A stretch of DNA of 64,000 nucleotides, taken from Eubacteriales bacterium. Its GTDB lineage: Bacteria; Bacillota; Clostridia; Oscillospirales; CAG-272. The notes beneath the pieces are model-generated. The model made no database searches and was not told where the DNA came from. It worked only from the letters and a program-made list of their open reading frames with translations. The stretch covers positions 8,673 through 72,672 of the forward strand of contig JAZQOM010000066.1 in the NCBI GenBank assembly GCA_045627885.1, in the 5' to 3' direction. Of the stretch, positions 9,196 through 50,995 are shown piece by piece (positions within the stretch are counted from its first letter, which is position 1; the number at the start of each line of letters is the position of its first letter). The position numbers and the translations under genes are program-made.

Positions 9196-10008
9196 ATGAA
9201 AAAGATTATATATATTGCGGTGGCGCTTCTTCTGTGCGCGTCGCTCCTTGTCTCCTGCACGGGAACGAAAGTCAATATTACGGACGGCAGTAAAGAAACA
9301 TCTGCCGATGTGGAAGATGTTCCGGGAGGCGAGAAAAAAGAAGGCGATAACGGCGAGGGATACGCAAAGCCCGCAACTTTCGCAAGGCTTTATGCCGCGA
9401 TATCCGATTTGAGGAACGATTTTTACGATACGCTCACCGCGTCTCTTGCCGAGGTCAGCGACGACACGCAGCTTTTTATCGACATATACAAGGCAATGGC
9501 GGGGGAATCAACTTTTGTGTATATCTCCACCTGCGGAACGGGCGATGAGAAAATACTCAAAAAGGCACTTTCGGTCGGCGAATATATTGACATCGAGATA
9601 AGCGCGCCGGAGGACGGAGTATGGCGCATAGACCTTAAGGCAAAGACGGACAAGGGATACAGAAAAGGCGGCTTCAATGTCATTTACGACAAAGAGGCGG
9701 ACGGCTTTAAGCTCGACTATTCGGTAGAGGACGGAACCTTCAGGAAGTTTTACGCAAAGCGCGCGCAAAAGGGCTACATAGCGCAATATCTCGACAATAC
9801 GGGACTTTATGTAAGATATATCTTAGGCGATGACGGCACAGGCAAGATGCTTGTCTGCGACAGTACGATGTGGCAAAACGGACTTCCCGACACCGAAGAG
9901 AAATTCGACACGACGGACTTTATACAGCTCTTTGAGCTCACGGGGGACAAGTTCCATTCGATAAGCAACGGAGTAGAGGATACTTATCCCGAGGTCAAGC
10001 CCGAATAG
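9196..10008 (+). CDS. hypothetical lipoprotein
   Basis: Signal peptide with lipobox LLVSC at residue 21. I recognise no family. Confidence 0.7.
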   Translation: MKKIIYIAVALLLCASLLVSCTGTKVNITDGSKETSADVEDVPGGEKKEGDNGEGYAKPATFARLYAAISDLRNDFYDTLTASLAEVSDDTQLFIDIYKAMAGESTFVYISTCGTGDEKILKKALSVGEYIDIEISAPEDGVWRIDLKAKTDKGYRKGGFNVIYDKEADGFKLDYSVEDGTFRKFYAKRAQKGYIAQYLDNTGLYVRYILGDDGTGKMLVCDSTMWQNGLPDTEEKFDTTDFIQLFELTGDKFHSISNGVEDTYPEVKPE

Positions 10009-13917: not shown

Positions 13918-16900
13918 ATGCTCCGTCTTGTGTATTCAAAGGATGAAGCCGCCCGCACAAAGCGTATCGACGGCATAATAACAGAGCTTTGCGCAGAAGA
14001 AAAGCGCTGTTTTCTCATTGTGCCCGAAACGGCGGTGCTTGCCGCGGAAAAAAGGCTTTTCCCGGCGCTTGACGCAAAGGTCAACCTGTTTTTTGAGGTG
14101 TTGAGTTTCCGAAGACTGCCCGACCGTCTTCACAGAGAAGCGGGCGGAATGACAAACGACACGGTGAGCGAGGGCGGCAGAGCGATTTTAACCTCTCTTG
14201 CGCTTTCCGAAGTCGGCGCAGAATTAAAAAGATACGACAGAATTTATCAAAGTGAGAGCTTTGTTCTCAAAATGTCGGAATGTATCGCAAATCTCAAGTC
14301 GATGTCGATTGGAGCAGATGAGCTTGTTGAGGCAGCGGAAAAAGTGAGCGACGGCGGACTTTCCAAAAAGCTTCACGATATTTCGAGGGTATATTCCGCG
14401 TACGAGGCGCTTTTGGGAAAGAATCTCGACGACGACTCAAACAGAATGAGCTATGTGGCGGAAAAGCTCGGAGAATATCCGTTTTTTAACGGCTCTGTCG
14501 TTGTGATAGACGGCTTTGTCGGCTATACTCCCAAAGAATATGCGATAATCGGAAGGGCGCTTGCACAGGCGGACGATGTTTACATCACAATCCCATGCGA
14601 TATAAAATCAGACGGCGATATATACAAAAAGCCGCTGAAAGCGGCAGAAGCGCTTAAGCGGGAAGCAGGCAAAAAATCCGTTATCGTGGCTACACCGGAG
14701 CAACTTGAGGAAATACCGTGCGCTTTTTCAAGTCTTGCAAGAGTAAAAGCCGGGCTTTGGAGCGGCGGCAAGGACGAAGCAAAATCTCCCGACGGAAGCG
14801 TGAGACTCATCGGATGCGACACCGAGGCGGGAGAAGCCGAGGCGGCGGCGATGCTTGTGCTCGGGCTTTGCGCCGAAAACGGATACGAGATGCGCGATAT
14901 CGCCCTCTGCGTGGCAGATGCCGCATCCTACGGCGGAATAGCGGATTCCGTATTCAAGCGTCACGAAATTCCATTGTATATGTCGGTAAAATCAGATTTC
15001 GCGTCAACGCCGTTTTACAGATTCATTATGTCGAGTCTTTCCGCGGTGCAGAACGGATTTTTGTGCGACGATATGATTGCACTGCTCAAAACTTCGCTTA
15101 CCGATGTACCCGAAGAATGCGCGGACGAGCTTTGCTGTTATGCAAAAACATGGAACTTTTCGGGCAAGGCGTGGTCACCGGAGCTCGAATTTAAGCATAA
15201 CCCCGACGGATTTTCGACAAATAAGCTTTCAAAGAGGGGAGAAACGATATTAAAAAGGGCAAATCACGCAAAGCCGCTTTTGATGAATCCGCTCATATCT
15301 CTCAAAGAAAATCTTGCATCCGCTCGTAACGCCCGCGATTTCGCAAAGGCGCTGTTTTCGTATGCGGAGGAGCTCGGCATCGAGAAAAAAGAGGAAAAGA
15401 ACGCGGAATTCCTCGAAAACTGCGGCGAATACTATCTTGCAAGCTGCAAAAAACAGCTCTGGGGGCAGTTCTGCGGAGCGCTTGACTGCCTTGTGAATTT
15501 GTGCTCCGACAAAGAGCTTGATATGAATACATTTGTATTCTTGCTCAATCTTGAGCTTAAAAGCCTGCGCCTTGCGGCGATTCCCGGCTCCGTTGACGAG
15601 GTACAGATGATACCGGCGTCAAGCATATCCGGAAGCAGTCCGAAAGCGCTTATCGTGCTCGGGGCAAACGAGGGAGTGTTCCCAGAGGTTCCCGAGGAAG
15701 ACCCGTTTTTCACAAAAGAAGAGCTTTCTTTGCTTGACACGCTCGGCATTGACAGGGGAACGGATGCCTTTGACTACGGTTGCGAGCCCTTGCGGAGCTT
15801 TCAGAGCGCCGTATCGCTTCCGAGTGAGAAGCTGTTTGTACTCCGCTTGTCGTCAAAACAGCCGTCCATCGGCTTTACGAGAATAAAGTCAGTCACCGGA
15901 GAAGAGGAAGAGGACGCTTCAAAGCTCCCCGCATACGGCATAAACGCCGTTTGCGATGCCTACGCATATACCAAAAACGCACAGCTCGGCAAAAAGCTCA
16001 AGGAAAAGTTGCCCGAAAGGATATACGATTCTTTCGGCAAAAAGCTCGACGCACAAGATGCGAAAATATCCGAAAAAACCGTTGACGGCATCATCAAGGA
16101 CAAGTATTTGCTCAGCCCGTCGGCACAGGAGGAGTTTCGCCAATGTATGCTTCGCGGATGGGGCGGCAGAGTGCTGAAGCTCCGCGAAGAAAAATCCGCG
16201 CTTAAGCTCGAGGCAAACGACAGCGGCACATTCTATCACCGCGTATTCGAACAGTTTATAACGGAAATGATAAATTCCGGAAAGCCCGCATCTTCGATAA
16301 CTCCGGATATCATACGCGAAAAGCTGAAGAAATACACCGATGAATATGTAAACGAAGTTCTCGGCGGCTTTGAGGGCAAGAGTGCGAGATTTATATATCT
16401 TTTCAATCGACTGCAGAGCACGCTCGAGATGTTTTTGCGCCACATCGTCGACGATTACAGTCAGAGCAAATTCGTTCCGTGGAAAACGGAATGCAAAATA
16501 GGCGACAAGGACGGCGAGATAAAGGGACTTACCGTCACCGTCGGAGACAAAAAAGAAATAATGATAACCGGCTCTGCCGACAGAGTGGATATTTACAGAA
16601 AAAACGGCAAGGCTTATGTCAGAATCGGCGACTATAAGTCGGGCGGCAAGAAATTAAGCAAAAAAGATATCGAAAACGGATACAGCCACCAGATGCTTGC
16701 GTATCTGTTCTCTCTGTGTAAAAACGCAAAGGACGAAGAGGGCTGCGAGCTTGCCTTCGGCGGAGTAATATATTATTCCGTAAGGCGCCCCAAGCTCGAC
16801 AAAGAGGCATTCGGCATTGACGCTCAGGCGGAGCTTGACGAAGACAGCATCAAAAACGGCTTTGAAACAAACGGACTTCTGATATCCGATATTGATGTTA

Positions 16901-33219: not shown

Positions 33220-33248
33220 TTGACTAATTGCATTTTTTACTATATAAT
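33220..33248 (+). promoter_or_regulatory. sigma-A-type promoter for the 33351 surface-protein gene
   Basis: TTGACT, a 17-nt spacer, then TATAAT. The TTGACTAAT box matches the promoter at 59525. Confidence 0.6.
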
Positions 33249-33350: not shown

Positions 33351-34685
33351 ATGAAAAAAATCATTTCTGTTCTGCTTGTTCTCTGCATGGCACTTGCTTG
33401 CGTACTCAGTTTTACGCCTGCCGTATGTGCAGCAGACGGCCCCGCTTTCAGCGTAAGTGGTACTACCGCTGACATCGGAGACACAATTACACTTACATTG
33501 ACGGCTGATAAGGGCGGCTTTACGGGCGCCGAGATTCAGCTTGATTATGACAAAACATGCCTTAAGCTCGTTGATGTAAATCTTGAGCTTTCCGCAACCG
33601 GCAAGGATGTTTACGGCGCGGCCAATAAGATGGCTACCGTTCCTTATTCGATGCTGTTCACAAAAGCGAGCGGACCTGTTGATGATGAAACCGTGCTCGG
33701 CAATTTCACATTTGAGATTGTTGACGCCGGCAAAGAAGACTTGTCTGTTGCAGTAGGCTTCACGGTTGGTATGCCTGTTGTCGGCGGCGGAACAAGACTC
33801 GGTCAGGTCGTTAACGGCGGAACTGACCTCAGTGCTTCGACATCTTTCACCGCAGGTACAGTTCATGTTACCGGCGCTCCCTCATCAAATTTAGCTTCCG
33901 ACGAGTATGATTACTACTATAACAAGAAAGCCGGCGGCGATGTATTTGAATATATCGGCGTACGCGTGCTTGATAAGTTGATATTCCCCGCTGAAGTAAC
34001 CAATATTGATGTCGTAGAAAGTCTTGACGATGTATCGACATTTGTATTCCCCGAAACGGTTGAAAGCGTCACGGATTTTGCTCTCGAGGATGCCGGAGTC
34101 GGTGATGGTGCCGAGTATTATTTCTTCAATCCGGAGATTGAATTAGGAGAAGGTTCCATAGGTTATTATTATGACAAAAAAGGAAGAGAAGACCTTCCTT
34201 GCGAAGATGTAATAATTCACGGCTGGCTCGGCTCTACTGCAGAAACTTACGCAACCGAAAACGGATTTGAATTTAAGCCCATCGGAGAATTCAAGACAAT
34301 CGGCGCACAGAACGGCACGAACGCAATTCGCTTTATATCAAGAATGAAATATGCAGACAGCTATGTTGCCGCAAAGGTTGTTATCTCCGCAACAGGCGCA
34401 GATGATTCCGGCACTGCTATCAACAAGAGCGCAAAAGAGCTTCCCGTATCCTGCGTATATAAGACAATCAAGGGCTCGACAGGCGGTACTTCATTCGTAG
34501 CAAAGAGCTGCCCCGAGGGATATTACCTCTCCGCGGTTTCGATTAAGAATCTGCCCACCTTCACGGGAAGCGGAAACATCGTATTTACTGTTAAGACTTA
34601 TGTTAAGTACGCAGAAGATGGCGAATTTGTAGAGCTTGACAGCCAGAATCTCACATACGATAAAAACGGTTACAGTGGTAACTAA
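33351..34685 (+). CDS. secreted protein with N-terminal cohesin-like domain, BspA-type leucine-rich repeats and a C-terminal beta domain
   Basis: Signal peptide ending VCAADG. The segment GDTITLTLTADKGGFTGAEIQLDYDKTCLKLVDV...GNFTFEIV has a cohesin-like strand pattern. The LRR-like segment is LIFPAEVTNI...FVFPETVESV. Confidence 0.65.
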   Translation: MKKIISVLLVLCMALACVLSFTPAVCAADGPAFSVSGTTADIGDTITLTLTADKGGFTGAEIQLDYDKTCLKLVDVNLELSATGKDVYGAANKMATVPYSMLFTKASGPVDDETVLGNFTFEIVDAGKEDLSVAVGFTVGMPVVGGGTRLGQVVNGGTDLSASTSFTAGTVHVTGAPSSNLASDEYDYYYNKKAGGDVFEYIGVRVLDKLIFPAEVTNIDVVESLDDVSTFVFPETVESVTDFALEDAGVGDGAEYYFFNPEIELGEGSIGYYYDKKGREDLPCEDVIIHGWLGSTAETYATENGFEFKPIGEFKTIGAQNGTNAIRFISRMKYADSYVAAKVVISATGADDSGTAINKSAKELPVSCVYKTIKGSTGGTSFVAKSCPEGYYLSAVSIKNLPTFTGSGNIVFTVKTYVKYAEDGEFVELDSQNLTYDKNGYSGN

Positions 34686-34706
34686 GGGCGTCGGAGGTAT
34701 AGAGAA

Positions 34707-34835
34707 ATGAAAATGATTTATGAGATGCCCGATATCAAGTTTATCAAAGTCGCTTCTGAAGAGATTATGCTTCTCAGCAAAAATGACGATACTCCCGGTG
34801 AGGGCGAAGAGGTTAAGTGGGAAGACTGGACCTGA
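34707..34835 (+). CDS. small acidic peptide, 42 aa (not in ORF track)
   Basis: GGAGG sits 9 nt upstream. Product is MKMIYEMPDIKFIKVASEEIMLLSKNDDTPGEGEEVKWEDWT, paralogous to the peptide at 35101-35241. Confidence 0.55.
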   Translation: MKMIYEMPDIKFIKVASEEIMLLSKNDDTPGEGEEVKWEDWT

Positions 34836-35037
34836 TTAGAGGGACATAATAGAGCAATACAAAAGAAAGCTTGCATAAGCAAGCGGTCTTTTAGTCTGCT
34901 GACAAAGTCGCGCGATAGGCACAAAGCCGATAACTTGACAAAAATGTGAGAAGGAAAAGCAAAGCGGTGGGAAAGAATCAACAAGAGTATAGCTATCCCG
35001 ATGAGATGCGCGAAAGAAAATCGAAGAAAAAGCTCTT

Positions 35038-35071
35038 TTCGCAAATGCGAAAAGAGCTTTCATGCTTTGCT
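35038..35071. terminator. hairpin terminator between the two small peptide genes
   Basis: ~14-bp stem AAGCTCTTTTCGC / GCGAAAAGAGCTT. The T-run lies on the minus-strand side, and the plus-strand tail is weaker. Confidence 0.65.
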
Positions 35072-35100
35072 TATTCGGTTGCAGAAATACAACTTGCAAA

Positions 35101-35241
35101 TCAATATCTCTGCGTGTAATCCTTATCCTTATTGGGATTTCCCGAATCTTCGGGCTCCTCGGCAGGAGAAGATGTAAGCATTATATCGGGAAACTCCAAC
35201 AAAAGAATTTCCGCATCGGGATTTTTATAATTTTCTTTCAT
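35101..35241 (-). CDS. small acidic peptide, 46 aa (not in ORF track)
   Basis: GGAGG sits 7 nt upstream. Product is MKENYKNPDAEILLLEFPDIMLTSSPAEEPEDSGNPNKDKDYTQRY. It shares the motif YxxPDxx[FI][IL]x[VL]xxx[ED]IMLxS with the peptide at 34707. Confidence 0.55.
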   Translation of the reverse strand: MKENYKNPDAEILLLEFPDIMLTSSPAEEPEDSGNPNKDKDYTQRY

Positions 35242-35450
35242 ATCATAACCTCCGTTATTCAGTGCTGATTTTACTATATGTATACATTATACCACAAAAA
35301 AATAAAAAATCAATACTTATTTGAATTCGGTTCAATATCCGGAAAATGCAGGTATAAAGCGGCATTGGGGAGCTTTGAACAGAGAGAGCATAAATTTTCC
35401 GGTAAAAAACGAAAAAACAAACGCCGATTTCTGTATTTTCGAAACGACAC

Positions 35451-35479
35451 TTGACTTGTCTGTTCGGATTTGATATAAT
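35451..35479 (+). promoter_or_regulatory. sigma-A-type promoter (extended -10) for the FNT-fhs operon
   Basis: TTGACT, a 17-nt spacer, then TGaTATAAT. This leaves a ~130-nt leader. Confidence 0.6.
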
Positions 35480-35614
35480 AACTTAACAAAAAGCATTCTT
35501 GCTGCTGACGGCAAGCGCCGCGGAAACAAGTATGTATAAGCCGACGGGCGTATTTGTTTGTGCATGACAAGTATGCTCTTTTTTATACACTTTTTAATAT
35601 TAAGGAGAAGAATT

Positions 35615-38451: not shown

Positions 38452-40164
38452 TTATTCTCTGAACTGCATTGAATACAGCTTTGCGTATTCTCCGTTTGCG
38501 GCGATAAGCTCATCGTGAGTGCCGCTCTCCGTCATCTTTCCCTTGTCTATCACGGCTATTGTATCGGCGTTCTTTATCGTCGAAAGCCTGTGCGCGACGA
38601 CGAGTGTCGTTCTTCCTATGCAGAGCTCATCAAGCGCCTTTTGTATGTAAATTTCCGTCGTGTTGTCGAGCGCCGAGGTCGCTTCGTCGAGAATAAGTAT
38701 CGGCGGATTTTTGAGGAACACTCTCGCTATCGAAAGTCTCTGCTTCTGACCGCCCGATAGCTTTACTCCACGCTCTCCGATATTTGTTTCGTAGCCGTGC
38801 GGCAGGCTCATGATATATTCGTGAATGTTTGCCCGCTTTGCCGCCTCAATTACCTCTTCGTCGCTTGCATCAAGCCGCCCGTACAGAATATTGTCCTTTA
38901 TGCTTGCATTGAAAAGATATATGTCCTGCTGAACTATGCCGATGTTTCTTCGCAGAGATTCCATTGTCATTGAGCAGATATTTTTGCCGTCTATCAGAAT
39001 TTCGCCGCTGTTTATTTTATAGAAATTCGGGATAAGGTGGCATATCGTCGTCTTTCCTCCGCCGCTCGGGCCGACAAGCGCGTATGTTTTGCCTGCGGGA
39101 ATATCTATGTTTATTCCGTCGAGAACCGTCTTGCTGTCATTATACGAATATGTGACATTCTTAAATTCTATGTGCCCGTTTACTCTGCCTGCGTCGGTTG
39201 CGTTTTCGGCGTCCTTTTCGGGCTCTGTGTCGAGAATCTCGATAAATCTCTCAAAGCCGGTGACGCCGCTCTGATACTGCTCCATAAAGTTTATGAGCGT
39301 CGTTATCGGAGTTATAAACAGGTTGACGGAGAGAATGAACGCCGAATAATCAGCGAAGTCTATTTTTTCGGCATACAGAAAAAGTCCGCCCGCTATCAAA
39401 ACGACTACATTGAAGATATCCGTCACAAAAGAGGTCATCGAGTGGAACTGTCCCATCGCCTTGTAGGCTTCGCTTCTCGATTTGACGAACTGCTCGTTGC
39501 CGACCTCGAATTTTTCGCGTTCCTTTGCGGCGTTGTTGAACGCCTTTGTGACGCGAATGCCGGAGATACTGCTCTCCAAAGCCGCATTTATTTTGCCGAC
39601 TGACACTCTGCTTTCGGCAAATGCGTCGCGCATCTTTTTTCTCAGCGACATGGATATTATGAGAAGAAACGGCACGCAGGCAAATATGATAAGCGTAAGC
39701 CACGGGCTTATTGTCATAAGGTATATAAACGCGACTATTATCGAAATTGACGATACGATGAGATTTTCGGGGCCGTGATGCGCAAGCTCGCTTATATCCA
39801 TCAGGTCGTTTGTCATGCGCGACATTATCTTGCCCGTCTCGTGCTCGTCATAGAAGCCGTACGGTAGCTTTTCGAGGTGCTCGAACATATCCGAACGCAT
39901 CTTTGCCTGCATTCTGAGTCCCATTATATGACCGTAATACTGCACGAAGAAATTGAGCAAAAGCCGCACTGTATACAGCGCAAGCAGAACTATTCCGAAC
40001 AGGATTATCATACGGTATTTTTCGTGCGGGATAAGGTCGTTTAGCATCTTCCTTGTTACTATCGGATATACGACTCCGACGAGCGCGATAAGGAGCGATG
40101 CGAGCATATCCGCCGCGAAAAGCTTTTTATGCGGCTTGTAGTAGCTGAAAAATCTTTTTAACAT
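38452..40164 (-). CDS. ABC transporter, fused permease/ATP-binding exporter (MsbA/multidrug type)
   Basis: Six-TM N-terminal domain. Walker A GPSGGGKTT, signature LSGGQKQR and Walker B ILILDEATS. Start set to the ATG at 40164 (MLKRFFSYY). Confidence 0.9.
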   Translation of the reverse strand: MLKRFFSYYKPHKKLFAADMLASLLIALVGVVYPIVTRKMLNDLIPHEKYRMIILFGIVLLALYTVRLLLNFFVQYYGHIMGLRMQAKMRSDMFEHLEKLPYGFYDEHETGKIMSRMTNDLMDISELAHHGPENLIVSSISIIVAFIYLMTISPWLTLIIFACVPFLLIISMSLRKKMRDAFAESRVSVGKINAALESSISGIRVTKAFNNAAKEREKFEVGNEQFVKSRSEAYKAMGQFHSMTSFVTDIFNVVVLIAGGLFLYAEKIDFADYSAFILSVNLFITPITTLINFMEQYQSGVTGFERFIEILDTEPEKDAENATDAGRVNGHIEFKNVTYSYNDSKTVLDGINIDIPAGKTYALVGPSGGGKTTICHLIPNFYKINSGEILIDGKNICSMTMESLRRNIGIVQQDIYLFNASIKDNILYGRLDASDEEVIEAAKRANIHEYIMSLPHGYETNIGERGVKLSGGQKQRLSIARVFLKNPPILILDEATSALDNTTEIYIQKALDELCIGRTTLVVAHRLSTIKNADTIAVIDKGKMTESGTHDELIAANGEYAKLYSMQFRE

Positions 40165-40186
40165 ATTTTTCTCCGAAATACGAGGT

Positions 40187-40217
40187 GTCAAAGCGACACC
40201 TCGTATTGTGTTTTATA
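40187..40217. other. perfect 13-bp hairpin between PBP1A stop and ABC exporter RBS
   Basis: AATACGAGGTGTC, loop aaagc, GACACCTCGTATT. No U-run follows on the minus (coding) strand. Confidence 0.6.
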
Positions 40218-49551: not shown

Positions 49552-50523
49552 TCAGCTTTCGCTGTTCTCAGAATTATGTTCTGCCAAAATTGCCGCTTCG
49601 TTTTCTCTAAGCTGTTTTTCAAGGCGCTTGTTGAATTCTTCCGCGGTGTTGTAGCCCATCTTTTTCTGTCTCTGATTCATCGCCGCTATCTCGAGAATGA
49701 CGGCGAGGTTTCTGCCGGGGCGTACGGGAATGGTTAAGCTCGGCAGCTTTATGCCGAGTATTTCGATGTAGTCGTTTTCAAGCCCGATTCTGTCATAGAA
49801 TTTGCCCTTTTCCCACGGCTCGAAGTTAATCACAAGGTCGATTTTTTCGGTATCCTTTACAGCTCCCATACCGAAGATACGGCTTACATCGACAAGACCG
49901 ATTCCGCGGAGCTCGACCATGTGCTTTATCAGCTCCGGAGAGCTGCCGACAAGAGCCTTGCTTGAAACCTTTTTTATTTCAACCGCGTCGTCCGCGATAA
50001 GTCGGTGTCCTCTCTTTATGAGCTCTATCGCCGTTTCGCTTTTGCCGACGCCGCTGTCGCCCAAGATGAGCACGCCTTCGCCGTAGACTTCAACTAAAAC
50101 GCCGTGCCGCGTGATTCTCTGCGCAAGCTGAACATTGAGGTATGCGACGAGCGAATACGAGAAGTAGCTTGTTCGATGCTCGGTGCGGCATATCGGAACG
50201 GCATTTTCTTTTGCTATTCCGATAAATTCGGGGAATATGGAAAGGCTCGATGTGAATATTATACAGCAGGGGCGGAGCTTGCACAGTCTGCCGAACGCGG
50301 CGATTCTCTCCTCTTTTCCGAGGTCTGTCAGGTATTTGTGCTCTGTTCTGCCGATAAGCTGAATTCTTTCCTTGTCGAAAAGGTCGGAATATCCGGTAAA
50401 CGCAAGCCCGGGATGATTTACATCCGCGCTTTTTACAAGTCTTTGCGAAAGGTCGTCGGGAGCGTAAACCGTTTCAAGTGCAAAATTGTCGATTATGTTT
50501 TCGAGTGCAACGGTGTATTCCAT
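49552..50523 (-). CDS. hprK: HPr kinase/phosphorylase
   Basis: P-loop GDSGVGKSE and the signature IEIRGIG-like ELRGIGLVDV. Start moved to the ATG at 50523 (MEYTVALE). The 121-aa ORF-track extension is non-coding. Confidence 0.92.
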   Translation of the reverse strand: MEYTVALENIIDNFALETVYAPDDLSQRLVKSADVNHPGLAFTGYSDLFDKERIQLIGRTEHKYLTDLGKEERIAAFGRLCKLRPCCIIFTSSLSIFPEFIGIAKENAVPICRTEHRTSYFSYSLVAYLNVQLAQRITRHGVLVEVYGEGVLILGDSGVGKSETAIELIKRGHRLIADDAVEIKKVSSKALVGSSPELIKHMVELRGIGLVDVSRIFGMGAVKDTEKIDLVINFEPWEKGKFYDRIGLENDYIEILGIKLPSLTIPVRPGRNLAVILEIAAMNQRQKKMGYNTAEEFNKRLEKQLRENEAAILAEHNSENSES

Positions 50524-50563
50524 AAAAAGCATCTCCGTATATAAGTATAATAAATCAATATAT

Positions 50564-50592
50564 ATTATATACCTGTTGTCCGTCGTTTTCAA
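50564..50592 (-). promoter_or_regulatory. sigma-A-type promoter for the hprK operon
   Basis: On the minus strand: TTGAAA, a 17-nt spacer, then TATAAT. Confidence 0.6.
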
Positions 50593-50666
50593 TAGATTTG
50601 GCGCGATTTTGTATATTCGCTCATAAAATACGGATAATATAACGAAAAAAATTGTGGAGTAAGGTA

Positions 50667-50828
50667 ATGGGAGCAAAAGTAAAGGCGTCGGTGGAGATTG
50701 ACGGCATTGTGTACGAATTTTACAAAAAGGTCGGAGAGAACATAAAAAAATCTCCCGAGAAGGTGATGGCAGACGCACTGTTGCGCTTTGCACAGATGGC
50801 GGCGGACGGTATGTTCGATAAAAAATAA
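50667..50828 (+). CDS. small ribbon-helix-helix-like protein, 53 aa (not in ORF track)
   Basis: Product is MGAKVKASVEIDGIVYEFYKKVGENIKKSPEKVMADALLRFAQMAADGMFDKK. The pattern of a beta strand followed by two helices looks CopG/antitoxin-like. The GGAG RBS is weak. Confidence 0.4.
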   Translation: MGAKVKASVEIDGIVYEFYKKVGENIKKSPEKVMADALLRFAQMAADGMFDKK

Positions 50829-50995
50829 ATAATTCCGCTCTTTCGGCGCGCGCCCGTGAGGATGTTTTTTGAATCCTTGCCGCCACGCGTCGAAAACATC
50901 ACTGCGAACATAGCGGGCAATATTACTTGTCTTGAGACTTTTGAATACAAAGTCGTTGCCTGCAACTGTGCTTTGGGCAAATATAAAATAAAGAA

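Follow-up and report, generated by a model that had tools for sequence, protein, structure and literature searches.

Two short acidic peptide genes beside a cohesin-like protein gene belong to a large peptide family of gut and rumen Clostridia with a lasso-type leader and a candidate maturation cassette

Several described systems share part of their organization with the genes analyzed here. In prochlorosin-type systems, 1 maturase set is accompanied by many dispersed precursor genes; SynChlorMet (SCM) cassettes are defined by their radical-SAM/SPASM partners, and the NCBIfam description of ScmC presents it as an HPr-kinase-related protein in a peptide-maturation context; and SipW-type signal peptidases have dedicated substrates, TasA and TapA of Bacillus. 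Our subject is a pair of short genes, pep1 and pep2, in a 64-kb stretch of DNA from a Eubacteriales bacterium (hereafter the window, meaning the whole stretch of 64,000 nucleotides), and the peptide family to which they belong. The closest described counterparts are phosphorylated or phosphoglycosylated lasso peptides of Firmicutes, namely paeninodin and pseudomycoidin, together with BsfA of Bradymonas. YxxPxL is the conserved leader motif of lasso precursors, and in lasso systems an HPr-kinase homologue needs B1 plus the leader to phosphorylate the linear precursor (PMC10368454, PMC8498205). The paeninodin and pseudomycoidin kinases phosphorylate a C-terminal Ser, BsfK acts on Ser3, and the pseudomycoidin nucleotidyltransferase adds hexose to the phosphate (PMC8498205, PMC10368454, PMC7533575).

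Both window genes are genuine and belong to a large peptide family, as yet without a name, of gut and rumen Clostridia. Like the lasso peptides above, the family has a leader with a Y-x-x-P-x-aliphatic motif, and the cassette found at some of its loci comprises a stand-alone PqqD/B1 protein, an HPr-kinase-like enzyme, a nucleotidyltransferase, and an ABC exporter. On balance, we consider it probable that the peptides serve as precursors whose leader is bound, which are probably phosphorylated, and which leave the cell, after cleavage, as linear peptides tied to surface-protein biology. We rate the system as a variant of peptide maturation guided by a leader and a recognition element (RRE) of the kind used for peptides made on the ribosome and modified after translation (RiPPs).

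The 2 open reading frames (ORFs) are present with exactly the translations quoted in a preliminary description of the window, and the strong Shine-Dalgarno sites and convergent arrangement reported there were borne out, each gene being followed by its own terminator-like hairpin (Table 1). Both genes do fall below the 60-aa limit of the ORF track, as that description stated, but they are not unannotated, both being called as proteins in the NCBI genome record. The pep1 ATG lies 21 nt past the stop codon of a gene for a 444-aa protein; pep2 has its own promoter-like site and is therefore a stand-alone unit. The gapless alignment of residues 5 to 24 is real: modest as a pair (BLASTP E = 2e-4, 14/43 identical), it is backed by homologues, and the kinship of the 2 peptides is secured because these homologues link both, the family profile being matched at about 1e-10 (pep1, E = 3e-11; pep2, E = 1e-10). 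The tails are acidic and Cys-free, as described, and end in Thr (pep1) and Tyr (pep2); neither peptide has a signal peptide. A third copy was sought in the window and none was found.

The close relatives of the pair form a narrow family. A full HMMER search with the pep1 plus pep2 alignment against 1.84 billion representative proteins returned 5 small homologues (P0005, P0006, P0008, P0009, and P0010; P0005 is MKKNYETPDIELIRVASEEIMLLSLSQNSTEGEEVNWEDWTN), while 2 repeat proteins from the same search (P0004 and P0007) were set aside, their scores being sums of low-complexity matches. P0011-P0014 came from a profile search, and a peptide pattern run against GTDB species genomes yielded 1 further locus from an Oscillospiraceae metagenome-assembled genome. 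A word-indexed search with a single peptide gave only the self-match, tblastn found no match for the peptides in phages and plasmids, and the narrow peptide pattern, which demanded residues seen only in the narrow subfamily, had no match in metagenomes. The preliminary description had proposed examining frame conservation and purifying selection, and both are seen: P0005 and P0011 are 68-71% identical to pep1 with the reading frame kept; M1, Y5, P8, and S24 are invariant in the narrow family; and the ratio of nonsynonymous to synonymous substitution rates (dN/dS) over the first 24 codons, compared between the window and its relative at L001 (loci are numbered with the prefix L), is about 0.2. 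The same 24 codons of L006 and L009 differ by 12 synonymous and 3 non-synonymous changes. The tails diverge freely while the leader is conserved.

The broad family is far larger. We scanned metagenomes with a degenerate DNA pattern for M-x3-Y-x2-P-[DE]-x-[EK]-h-h-x-h-x3-[DE]-[IV]-h-x2-S, which carries roughly 39 bits and for which a handful of chance matches is expected, leaving free the ORF size, start position, location, and residues at the free positions. At least 120 stretches matched, nearly all of them ORFs of 27-68 aa starting at the pattern ATG (for example, MKERYETPEMEIVEFETEDIITTSGDPETPFVPFSEK and MRKEYKSPEMELVEMNNNDIITTSGFDNNNLMDEYFGNDKDGYNFSDFY). A profile built from 56 members then matched at least 1137 clusters at E ≤ 1e-3 among 5.8 billion proteins, a lower bound owing to the word index; all are 32-61 aa long, without a Pfam domain and with no name other than "hypothetical protein," and some come from NCBI genomes. 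The mention, in the preliminary description, of similar mini-ORFs in other Clostridia was thus sound, and the homologue search proposed there uncovered a family of this size. Pfam and NCBIfam hold no curated model for it, neither pep1 and pep2 nor 8 typical members matching any, and we found no paper on the peptide family or the cassette, most subscription journals lying outside the search.

Across 114 unique sequences, the consensus reads M-K-[EK]-x-Y-x-x-P-E-h-E-[IV]-[VI]-E-F-x-x-E-D-[IV]-I-T-T-S, followed by a tail of 7-40 residues (median 15) that is net negative in 99% of cases. At positions partly constrained by the scan pattern, the leader Y and P are each present in 111/114 members and Ser is found at position 24 in 109/114; Gly occupies position 25 in 45/114, and Thr stands at −2 relative to a cut that we infer after Ser24 in 74/114 (Thr in pep2, Leu in pep1). 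Both window peptides have Y5 and P8, with I (pep1) or A (pep2) at position 10, and pep2 shares an LLLEFxD[IV]M core with the peptides of 2 cassette loci, L100 and L022. A Shine-Dalgarno-like site precedes 129 of 141 family members. A few members carry Cys-rich tails (L113:117-323, L115:1289-1420, and L119:2994-3131; for example, ...SECDAECGGCAVDTGEVPIG and ...TCICDSVCKVDGTCVNGDEYKCPPDNDCHFCFYLVC), which hints at different chemistry on the same leader.

The most regular feature of the family is its position behind genes for large secreted proteins. Genomic context was compiled for 147 peptide copies in 131 loci plus the window (132 loci), 13 loci besides the window holding 2 or 3 copies. Wherever an upstream neighbor was detectable, it was almost always on the same strand (130/136 copies), and the gap had a median of 19 nt and was ≤100 nt in 124/147 copies. 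Large proteins of up to 2152 aa are encoded upstream; they contain BspA-type LRR (LRR_5), InlB B-repeat, GLUG, beta-helix, F5/8-type-C, Big_2, RicinB, GH31, GxGYxYP, or cohesin domains. Among those with a complete N-terminus, 55/61 look signal-peptide-bearing; LPxTG occurs in only 3/93 and a C-terminal membrane segment in none, so that the upstream partners are predicted to be secreted proteins without a conventional anchor. A BLAST search for 1 domain common to all upstream proteins found none and separated them into several unrelated clusters.

At each locus of the narrow-family homologues, a larger same-strand gene precedes the peptide gene at a distance of 16-66 nt. At L001-L004, L010, and L011, the loci of the closest peptide homologues, the larger gene encodes a homologue of the C-terminal half of the 444-aa protein of the window (30-61% identity; gaps of 20-24 nt); at L006, L008, and L009 it encodes a RicinB/InlB-repeat/Big_2 protein, at L005 a GH31 enzyme, and at L007 a GxGYxYP protein of more than 2110 aa. 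The tail type tracks the upstream partner, WEDW occurring with the cohesin-like proteins and GGEEE with the RicinB/InlB-repeat proteins. The 444-aa protein has a signal-peptide-like N-terminus and, as the preliminary description had suspected, is cohesin-like, passing the threshold of Pfam PF00963 (27.4 bits against a gathering score of 24.1, E = 4.4e-6). Peptide genes sit at the 3' ends of large secreted-protein genes, and the cohesin-like neighbor is therefore part of the pattern rather than a bystander, a regularity that the preliminary description had missed while proposing that recurring neighbors be analyzed. pep1 is in frame with the cohesin-like gene, 1 TAA and 7 codons (GRRRYRE) lying between them (34683-34709); read-through from the 444-aa gene into pep1 was considered and rejected, as the frame relation is lost in L001-L003.

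Downstream, 23 of the 132 loci carry same-strand cassette genes after the peptide gene (tblastn), encoding a ScmC/HPr-kinase-like P-loop protein, PqqD, a SipW/Sec11-like Ser peptidase, an ABC exporter, and an NTP_transf_5 nucleotidyltransferase. At L111, 4 genes come after the second peptide copy, namely those for PqqD (PF05402, E = 2e-15), the nucleotidyltransferase (PF14907, E = 4e-43), an HPr-kinase-related P-loop protein, and a small S24/S26-type peptidase; in several loci, the exporter gene separates the peptidase gene from that of the nucleotidyltransferase. The operon is complete at L133, where, with domains assigned from precomputed Pfam hits, it runs in the order TetR, GLUG protein, peptide, second GLUG protein, peptide, membrane tether, peptide, ScmC (PF27840), PqqD, 144-aa peptidase, ABC exporter, and NTP_transf_5. 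The cassette PqqD is closest to lasso B1, both by the NCBIfam lasso_PqqD models (1.4e-11) and by its nearest PDB entries, TfuB1 (6jx3, 2.6e-5) and TbiB1. The exporters are 48-64% identical among themselves and show only the ABC_membrane and ABC_tran domains. The narrow subfamily of the window is itself cassette-linked: at L006 and L009 the peptidase gene comes immediately behind that of the peptide, and L100, whose peptide (MKRNYEEPEMEVLLLEFADVMNQS...) is pep2-like, has peptidase, PqqD, and kinase.

These genes connect the family to the other systems introduced above, each time in part. As in SCM, the kinase-like protein is assigned to the ScmC family (TIGR04249, PF27840), but the radical-SAM/SPASM partners were not seen in any locus. 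As with prochlorosins, the precursors outnumber the cassette, lie apart from it, and combine 1 conserved leader with hypervariable tails; unlike prochlorosins, there is no LanM, and the dispersed copies are tied to the 3' ends of secreted-protein genes. The peptidase is similar to signal peptidase of the archaeal type, to SipW, and to Sec11, and, as in the SipW/TasA system, it is encoded beside its presumed substrates, whose putative T-T-S|G site obeys the −3/−1 small-residue rule; unlike SipW, however, it has no N-terminal membrane anchor, and the presumed substrates have a charged leader in place of a hydrophobic signal peptide.

An AAA_14/DUF4143 ATPase gene lies between the kinase-like and PqqD genes in some loci (L012:8065-9384, L069:5668-6987, and L082:1116-2258); since other loci lack it, it seems to have been inserted there and not to be part of the cassette. 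Five loci (L132 and L134-L137; for example, L132:1-12220) hold a reduced arrangement of TetR, GLUG protein, peptide, tether, a decayed 38-aa peptide ORF, and, from the cassette, NTP_transf_5 only. The reduced system adjoins a sortase, an MT-A70 methylase, SpoVG, and a 2273-aa SNF2-type helicase, and looks like a mobile element; its 36-aa peptide, P0113, is indexed in 230 assembly-collection blocks.

A further protein recurs in 38 loci. It is either a lipoprotein or a protein anchored at its N-terminus, has a long linker rich in Ser, Thr, Asp, and Glu, and is usually encoded right after the peptide gene; we refer to it as a tether. The last residues of the tether resemble the tail of the neighboring peptide: tether ends and peptide tails read ...DDGLNWSPLVPVE and ...DDGLDWSPLTPVN at L057, ...TMEGWGKWKY and ...SMDGWGKWQF at L087, ...TIELPFVPAE and ...NPELPFVPVSGK at L028, ...DEPIDLPVIPIG and ...DVIDLPPVPVP at L111, and ...DSGWSPWA and ...GKWTPWV at L005. 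Similarity between tether end and tail within the same locus was 20.9, against 14.3 ± 1.3 for permuted pairings, and 0 of 2000 permutations reached 20.9. Two tethers contain the motif twice (L133:10298-10822 and L132:10305-10898), as ...DNELPVLPIG... just past the membrane anchor and as ...TIELPFVPAE at the C-terminus. At the GH31 locus L005, the enzyme ends in ...DAFGEDIFN (9900-9943) and a second acidic lipoprotein in ...DPAVKDIFD (15130-15177), which may represent another C-terminal motif common to secreted and tether-like proteins.

Putting these elements together, we infer the following route. PqqD would bind the leader through Y5-x-x-P8-[DE]-h; the kinase-like enzyme would phosphorylate the peptide, and the nucleotidyltransferase may extend the phosphate, as on paeninodin and pseudomycoidin; the peptidase would cut after Ser24, usually at T-T-S followed by Gly, where −3 (T/A) and −1 (S) fit the signal-peptidase rule; and the ABC transporter would export the linear acidic peptide. 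No ring would be made, because the cyclase is absent and selection for a ring-forming acid is not seen in the tails. The exported tail would most likely act as a ligand in the attachment or release of surface proteins, because the dispersed genes are tied to genes for anchorless surface proteins, with which they would be co-transcribed, and the tails mimic tether ends; this is the weakest part of the argument. More tentatively still, we put forward as a possibility a previously undescribed surface system of gut and rumen Clostridia, in which tethers would hold anchorless proteins by a short C-terminal motif, every surface-protein gene would come with a small precursor of its own, and precursor tails with the same motif would, after maturation and export, control attachment, release, or loading. 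If so, the peptides would constitute a new class of linear RiPPs with a structural rather than an antibiotic role.

The family is of wider interest on several counts. Small genes of gut anaerobes are mostly unannotated, and more than 1000 "hypothetical" mini-proteins are here placed in 1 family with a testable maturation route. A module of lasso-type leader, B1, kinase, and nucleotidyltransferase that operates without a cyclase would extend leader-guided chemistry to linear phospho-peptides. This chemistry would be tied to large surface proteins of Oscillospiraceae and their relatives that resemble adhesins, lectins, and glycosidases; these proteins, whose anchoring and regulation are poorly understood, shape the attachment of the bacteria to fibre, to mucus, and to one another.

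Several observations weigh against maturation and export of the peptides as linear phospho-peptides, at least as it would apply to the window. For the RiPP-like layout noted in the preliminary description, modification, cleavage, and export are predictions that draw on the leader motif and on the PqqD, kinase-like, peptidase, exporter, and nucleotidyltransferase genes found beside relatives. The window peptides are atypical, forming a divergent branch with IMLxS in place of the family VITTS, and pep1 has Leu rather than Thr at −2 and Lys rather than Gly after the Ser. Unlike paeninodin-type substrates, most family tails, including both in the window, lack a C-terminal Ser, the acceptor of the paeninodin and pseudomycoidin kinases. 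Matches of the kinase-like protein to HPr kinase and to ScmC are weak (TIGR04249, E = 2.6e-6, 27 bits against a curated cut-off of 125), and the scan pattern encodes part of the motif, so that the conservation counts given above are inflated at the constrained positions. As the preliminary description had observed of maturases, tblastn with the cassette proteins found no cassette gene in the 64-kb window, whose one ABC exporter shares just 23-25% identity with those of the cassettes, and 34 loci of at least 8 kb also lack a cassette. Such loci fit a single cassette serving many dispersed precursors, but the link from the cassette to the window depends on precisely this assumption, namely, 1 cassette per genome with dispersed precursors.

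How far the lasso analogy extends is a question of its own. The peptides could be ordinary lasso precursors whose cyclase (C) and protease (B2) are encoded elsewhere in the genome: the YxxPxh leader, the Thr mostly found at −2, where lasso leaders have Thr or rarely Ile or Val, the Gly at +1, and the similarity of PqqD to lasso B1 agree with this, kinases and nucleotidyltransferases are known lasso tailoring enzymes in Firmicutes, and in formal terms the tail of pep2 satisfies the ring rule (S1 and E7/D8). However, the lasso core rule (Gly/Ala/Ser/Cys at 1, Asp/Glu at 7-9) is obeyed by 26/114 tails, which is the shuffled expectation (26.7 ± 3.3) and leaves no excess of acid at 7-9; 28/114 tails are shorter than 13 residues, many tails are too short to thread, and the pep1 tail begins with Lys. 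The Y/P/h residues stand at −20/−17/−15 from the presumed junction, not at the canonical −17/−14/−12, and, unlike in lasso clusters, the precursors are many, dispersed, and placed behind surface-protein genes. Neither an Asn-synthetase-like cyclase nor a transglutaminase-like B2 was found among the recurrent families of 79 neighbor ORFs of cassette loci, in the complete L133 operon, or in the window, and the SipW-like peptidase fills the protease role. Two features that define lasso systems are missing, namely, the cyclase together with B2 and a core able to form the ring, and this explanation is highly improbable. It is also improbable, if to a lesser degree, that the peptides are exported unmodified as quorum-sensing-type signals, with the sensor encoded elsewhere and the kinase and nucleotidyltransferase unrelated to the peptide. 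A leader with a short variable tail, the cassette exporter, and the TetR regulator that recurs at operon heads would suit such a signal, but a double-glycine motif (GG, GA, or GS) is lacking, leaders end in T-S, L-S, or V-S, the exporters carry no C39 peptidase domain, and no histidine kinase or RRNPP-type receptor recurs at the cassette loci or in L133. A single locus can encode up to 3 different peptides with tails that copy the tether protein, which points to a structural ligand and away from a diffusible signal.

An unlikely but more serious competitor dispenses with processing altogether: the peptides would be unprocessed cytoplasmic small proteins acting on the protein encoded upstream, as a pre-secretion chaperone or a translational or quality-control partner, and the PqqD cassette would be a separate matter. 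Tight 3' coupling to large secreted-protein genes is indeed the most general feature of the family, in the window as in all narrow-family loci; most loci, including the window, show no cassette; the peptides lack a signal peptide; and the tail types follow the upstream protein family. Yet unrelated upstream proteins go with one and the same conserved part, and it is the variable part that differs, a distribution better explained by a common processing handle than by a partner-specific fold, and the conserved part contains the B1-binding YxxPxh together with a signal-peptidase-like T-T-S/G junction. Moreover, pep2 and other copies stand alone or follow a small tether gene rather than one for a large protein, and the cassette, where present, is always on the same strand directly after the peptide gene. 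As for chance ORFs in non-coding DNA, which short length, weak pairwise similarity, and the lack of a curated family match might suggest, that reading is already refuted by frame-conserving homologues across many metagenomes and genomes, the purifying selection on the leader, the Shine-Dalgarno sites, and the number of clusters matched at a database-wide E ≤ 1e-3. Leader-guided maturation and export as linear peptides is the reading that we retain.

Table 1. Features of the peptide genes and of the adjoining cohesin-like gene in the window.
Feature	Position	Strand	Remarks
pep1 (peptide gene 1)	34707..34835	+	42 aa; translation MKMIYEMPDIKFIKVASEEIMLLSKNDDTPGEGEEVKWEDWT
pep1 leader	34707-34778	+	codons 1-24
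pep1 acidic tail	34779-34832	+	KNDDTPGEGEEVKWEDWT; stop codon next
pep1 Shine-Dalgarno site	34693-34697	+	GGAGG, 9 nt ahead of ATG
Terminator-like hairpin and T-run	34869..34892	+	end of transcript of 444-aa gene and pep1; hairpin 34869-34884
pep2 (peptide gene 2)	35241-35101	-	46 aa; translation MKENYKNPDAEILLLEFPDIMLTSSPAEEPEDSGNPNKDKDYTQRY
pep2 leader	35241-35170	-	
pep2 tail	35169-35104	-	SPAEEPEDSGNPNKDKDYTQRY; stop codon next
pep2 Shine-Dalgarno site	35253-35249	-	GGAGG, 7 nt ahead of ATG
Promoter-like site ahead of pep2	35313-35286	-	TTGATT, 16-nt spacer, TG-TATAAT; consensus match only
Terminator-like hairpin 3' of pep2	35061-35028	-	15-bp stem and T-run
Upstream partner gene	33351..34685	+	444-aa secreted protein; cohesin domain at residues 32-138
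Promoter-like site of 444-aa gene	33220-33248	+	

Within about 17 kb on either side, the remaining genes of the window are housekeeping genes. They include nadA, nadB, nadC, and genes for a FAA-hydrolase-family protein, a formate/nitrite transporter, a formate-tetrahydrofolate ligase, and a generic ABC half-transporter; also nearby are genes for a class A penicillin-binding protein, DnaE, WhiA, RapZ, MurB, a genuine HPr kinase, and alanine racemase, as well as RecR, YbaB, DnaX, RpiB, TsaB, and TsaE. A tether-like lipoprotein ending in W-x-x-W was sought in the window and none was found. Two window genes were considered as cassette members and rejected: the ABC exporter at 38452-40191, on account of its low identity to the cassette exporters, and the genuine HprK at 49552-50886 (- strand), which shows both domains of a complete HPr kinase, sits among the housekeeping genes for MurB, RapZ, and WhiA, and is missed by tblastn with the cassette kinase. 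As annotated, the HprK ORF encodes 444 aa, with an N-terminus about 125 residues beyond what the 2 Pfam domains need, and overlaps the murB ORF by about 70 nt; its true start may lie downstream.

An Rfam search of the peptide region gave only sub-threshold PyrR and IsrM matches, located on the terminator hairpin. The PyrR-binding-site match (35024-35140, - strand; 30.9 bits, where the gathering score is 54; E = 0.17) overlaps the terminator hairpin and the 3' end of pep2 and is probably due to chance. A separate element at 35440-35580 matched no Rfam family at E ≤ 1. In it, a strong promoter-like site (35451-35479) comes first and a terminator-like hairpin (35546-35578) second. With the genes for the formate/nitrite transporter and the formate-tetrahydrofolate ligase just downstream, the element looks like a leader/attenuator or an unknown riboswitch.

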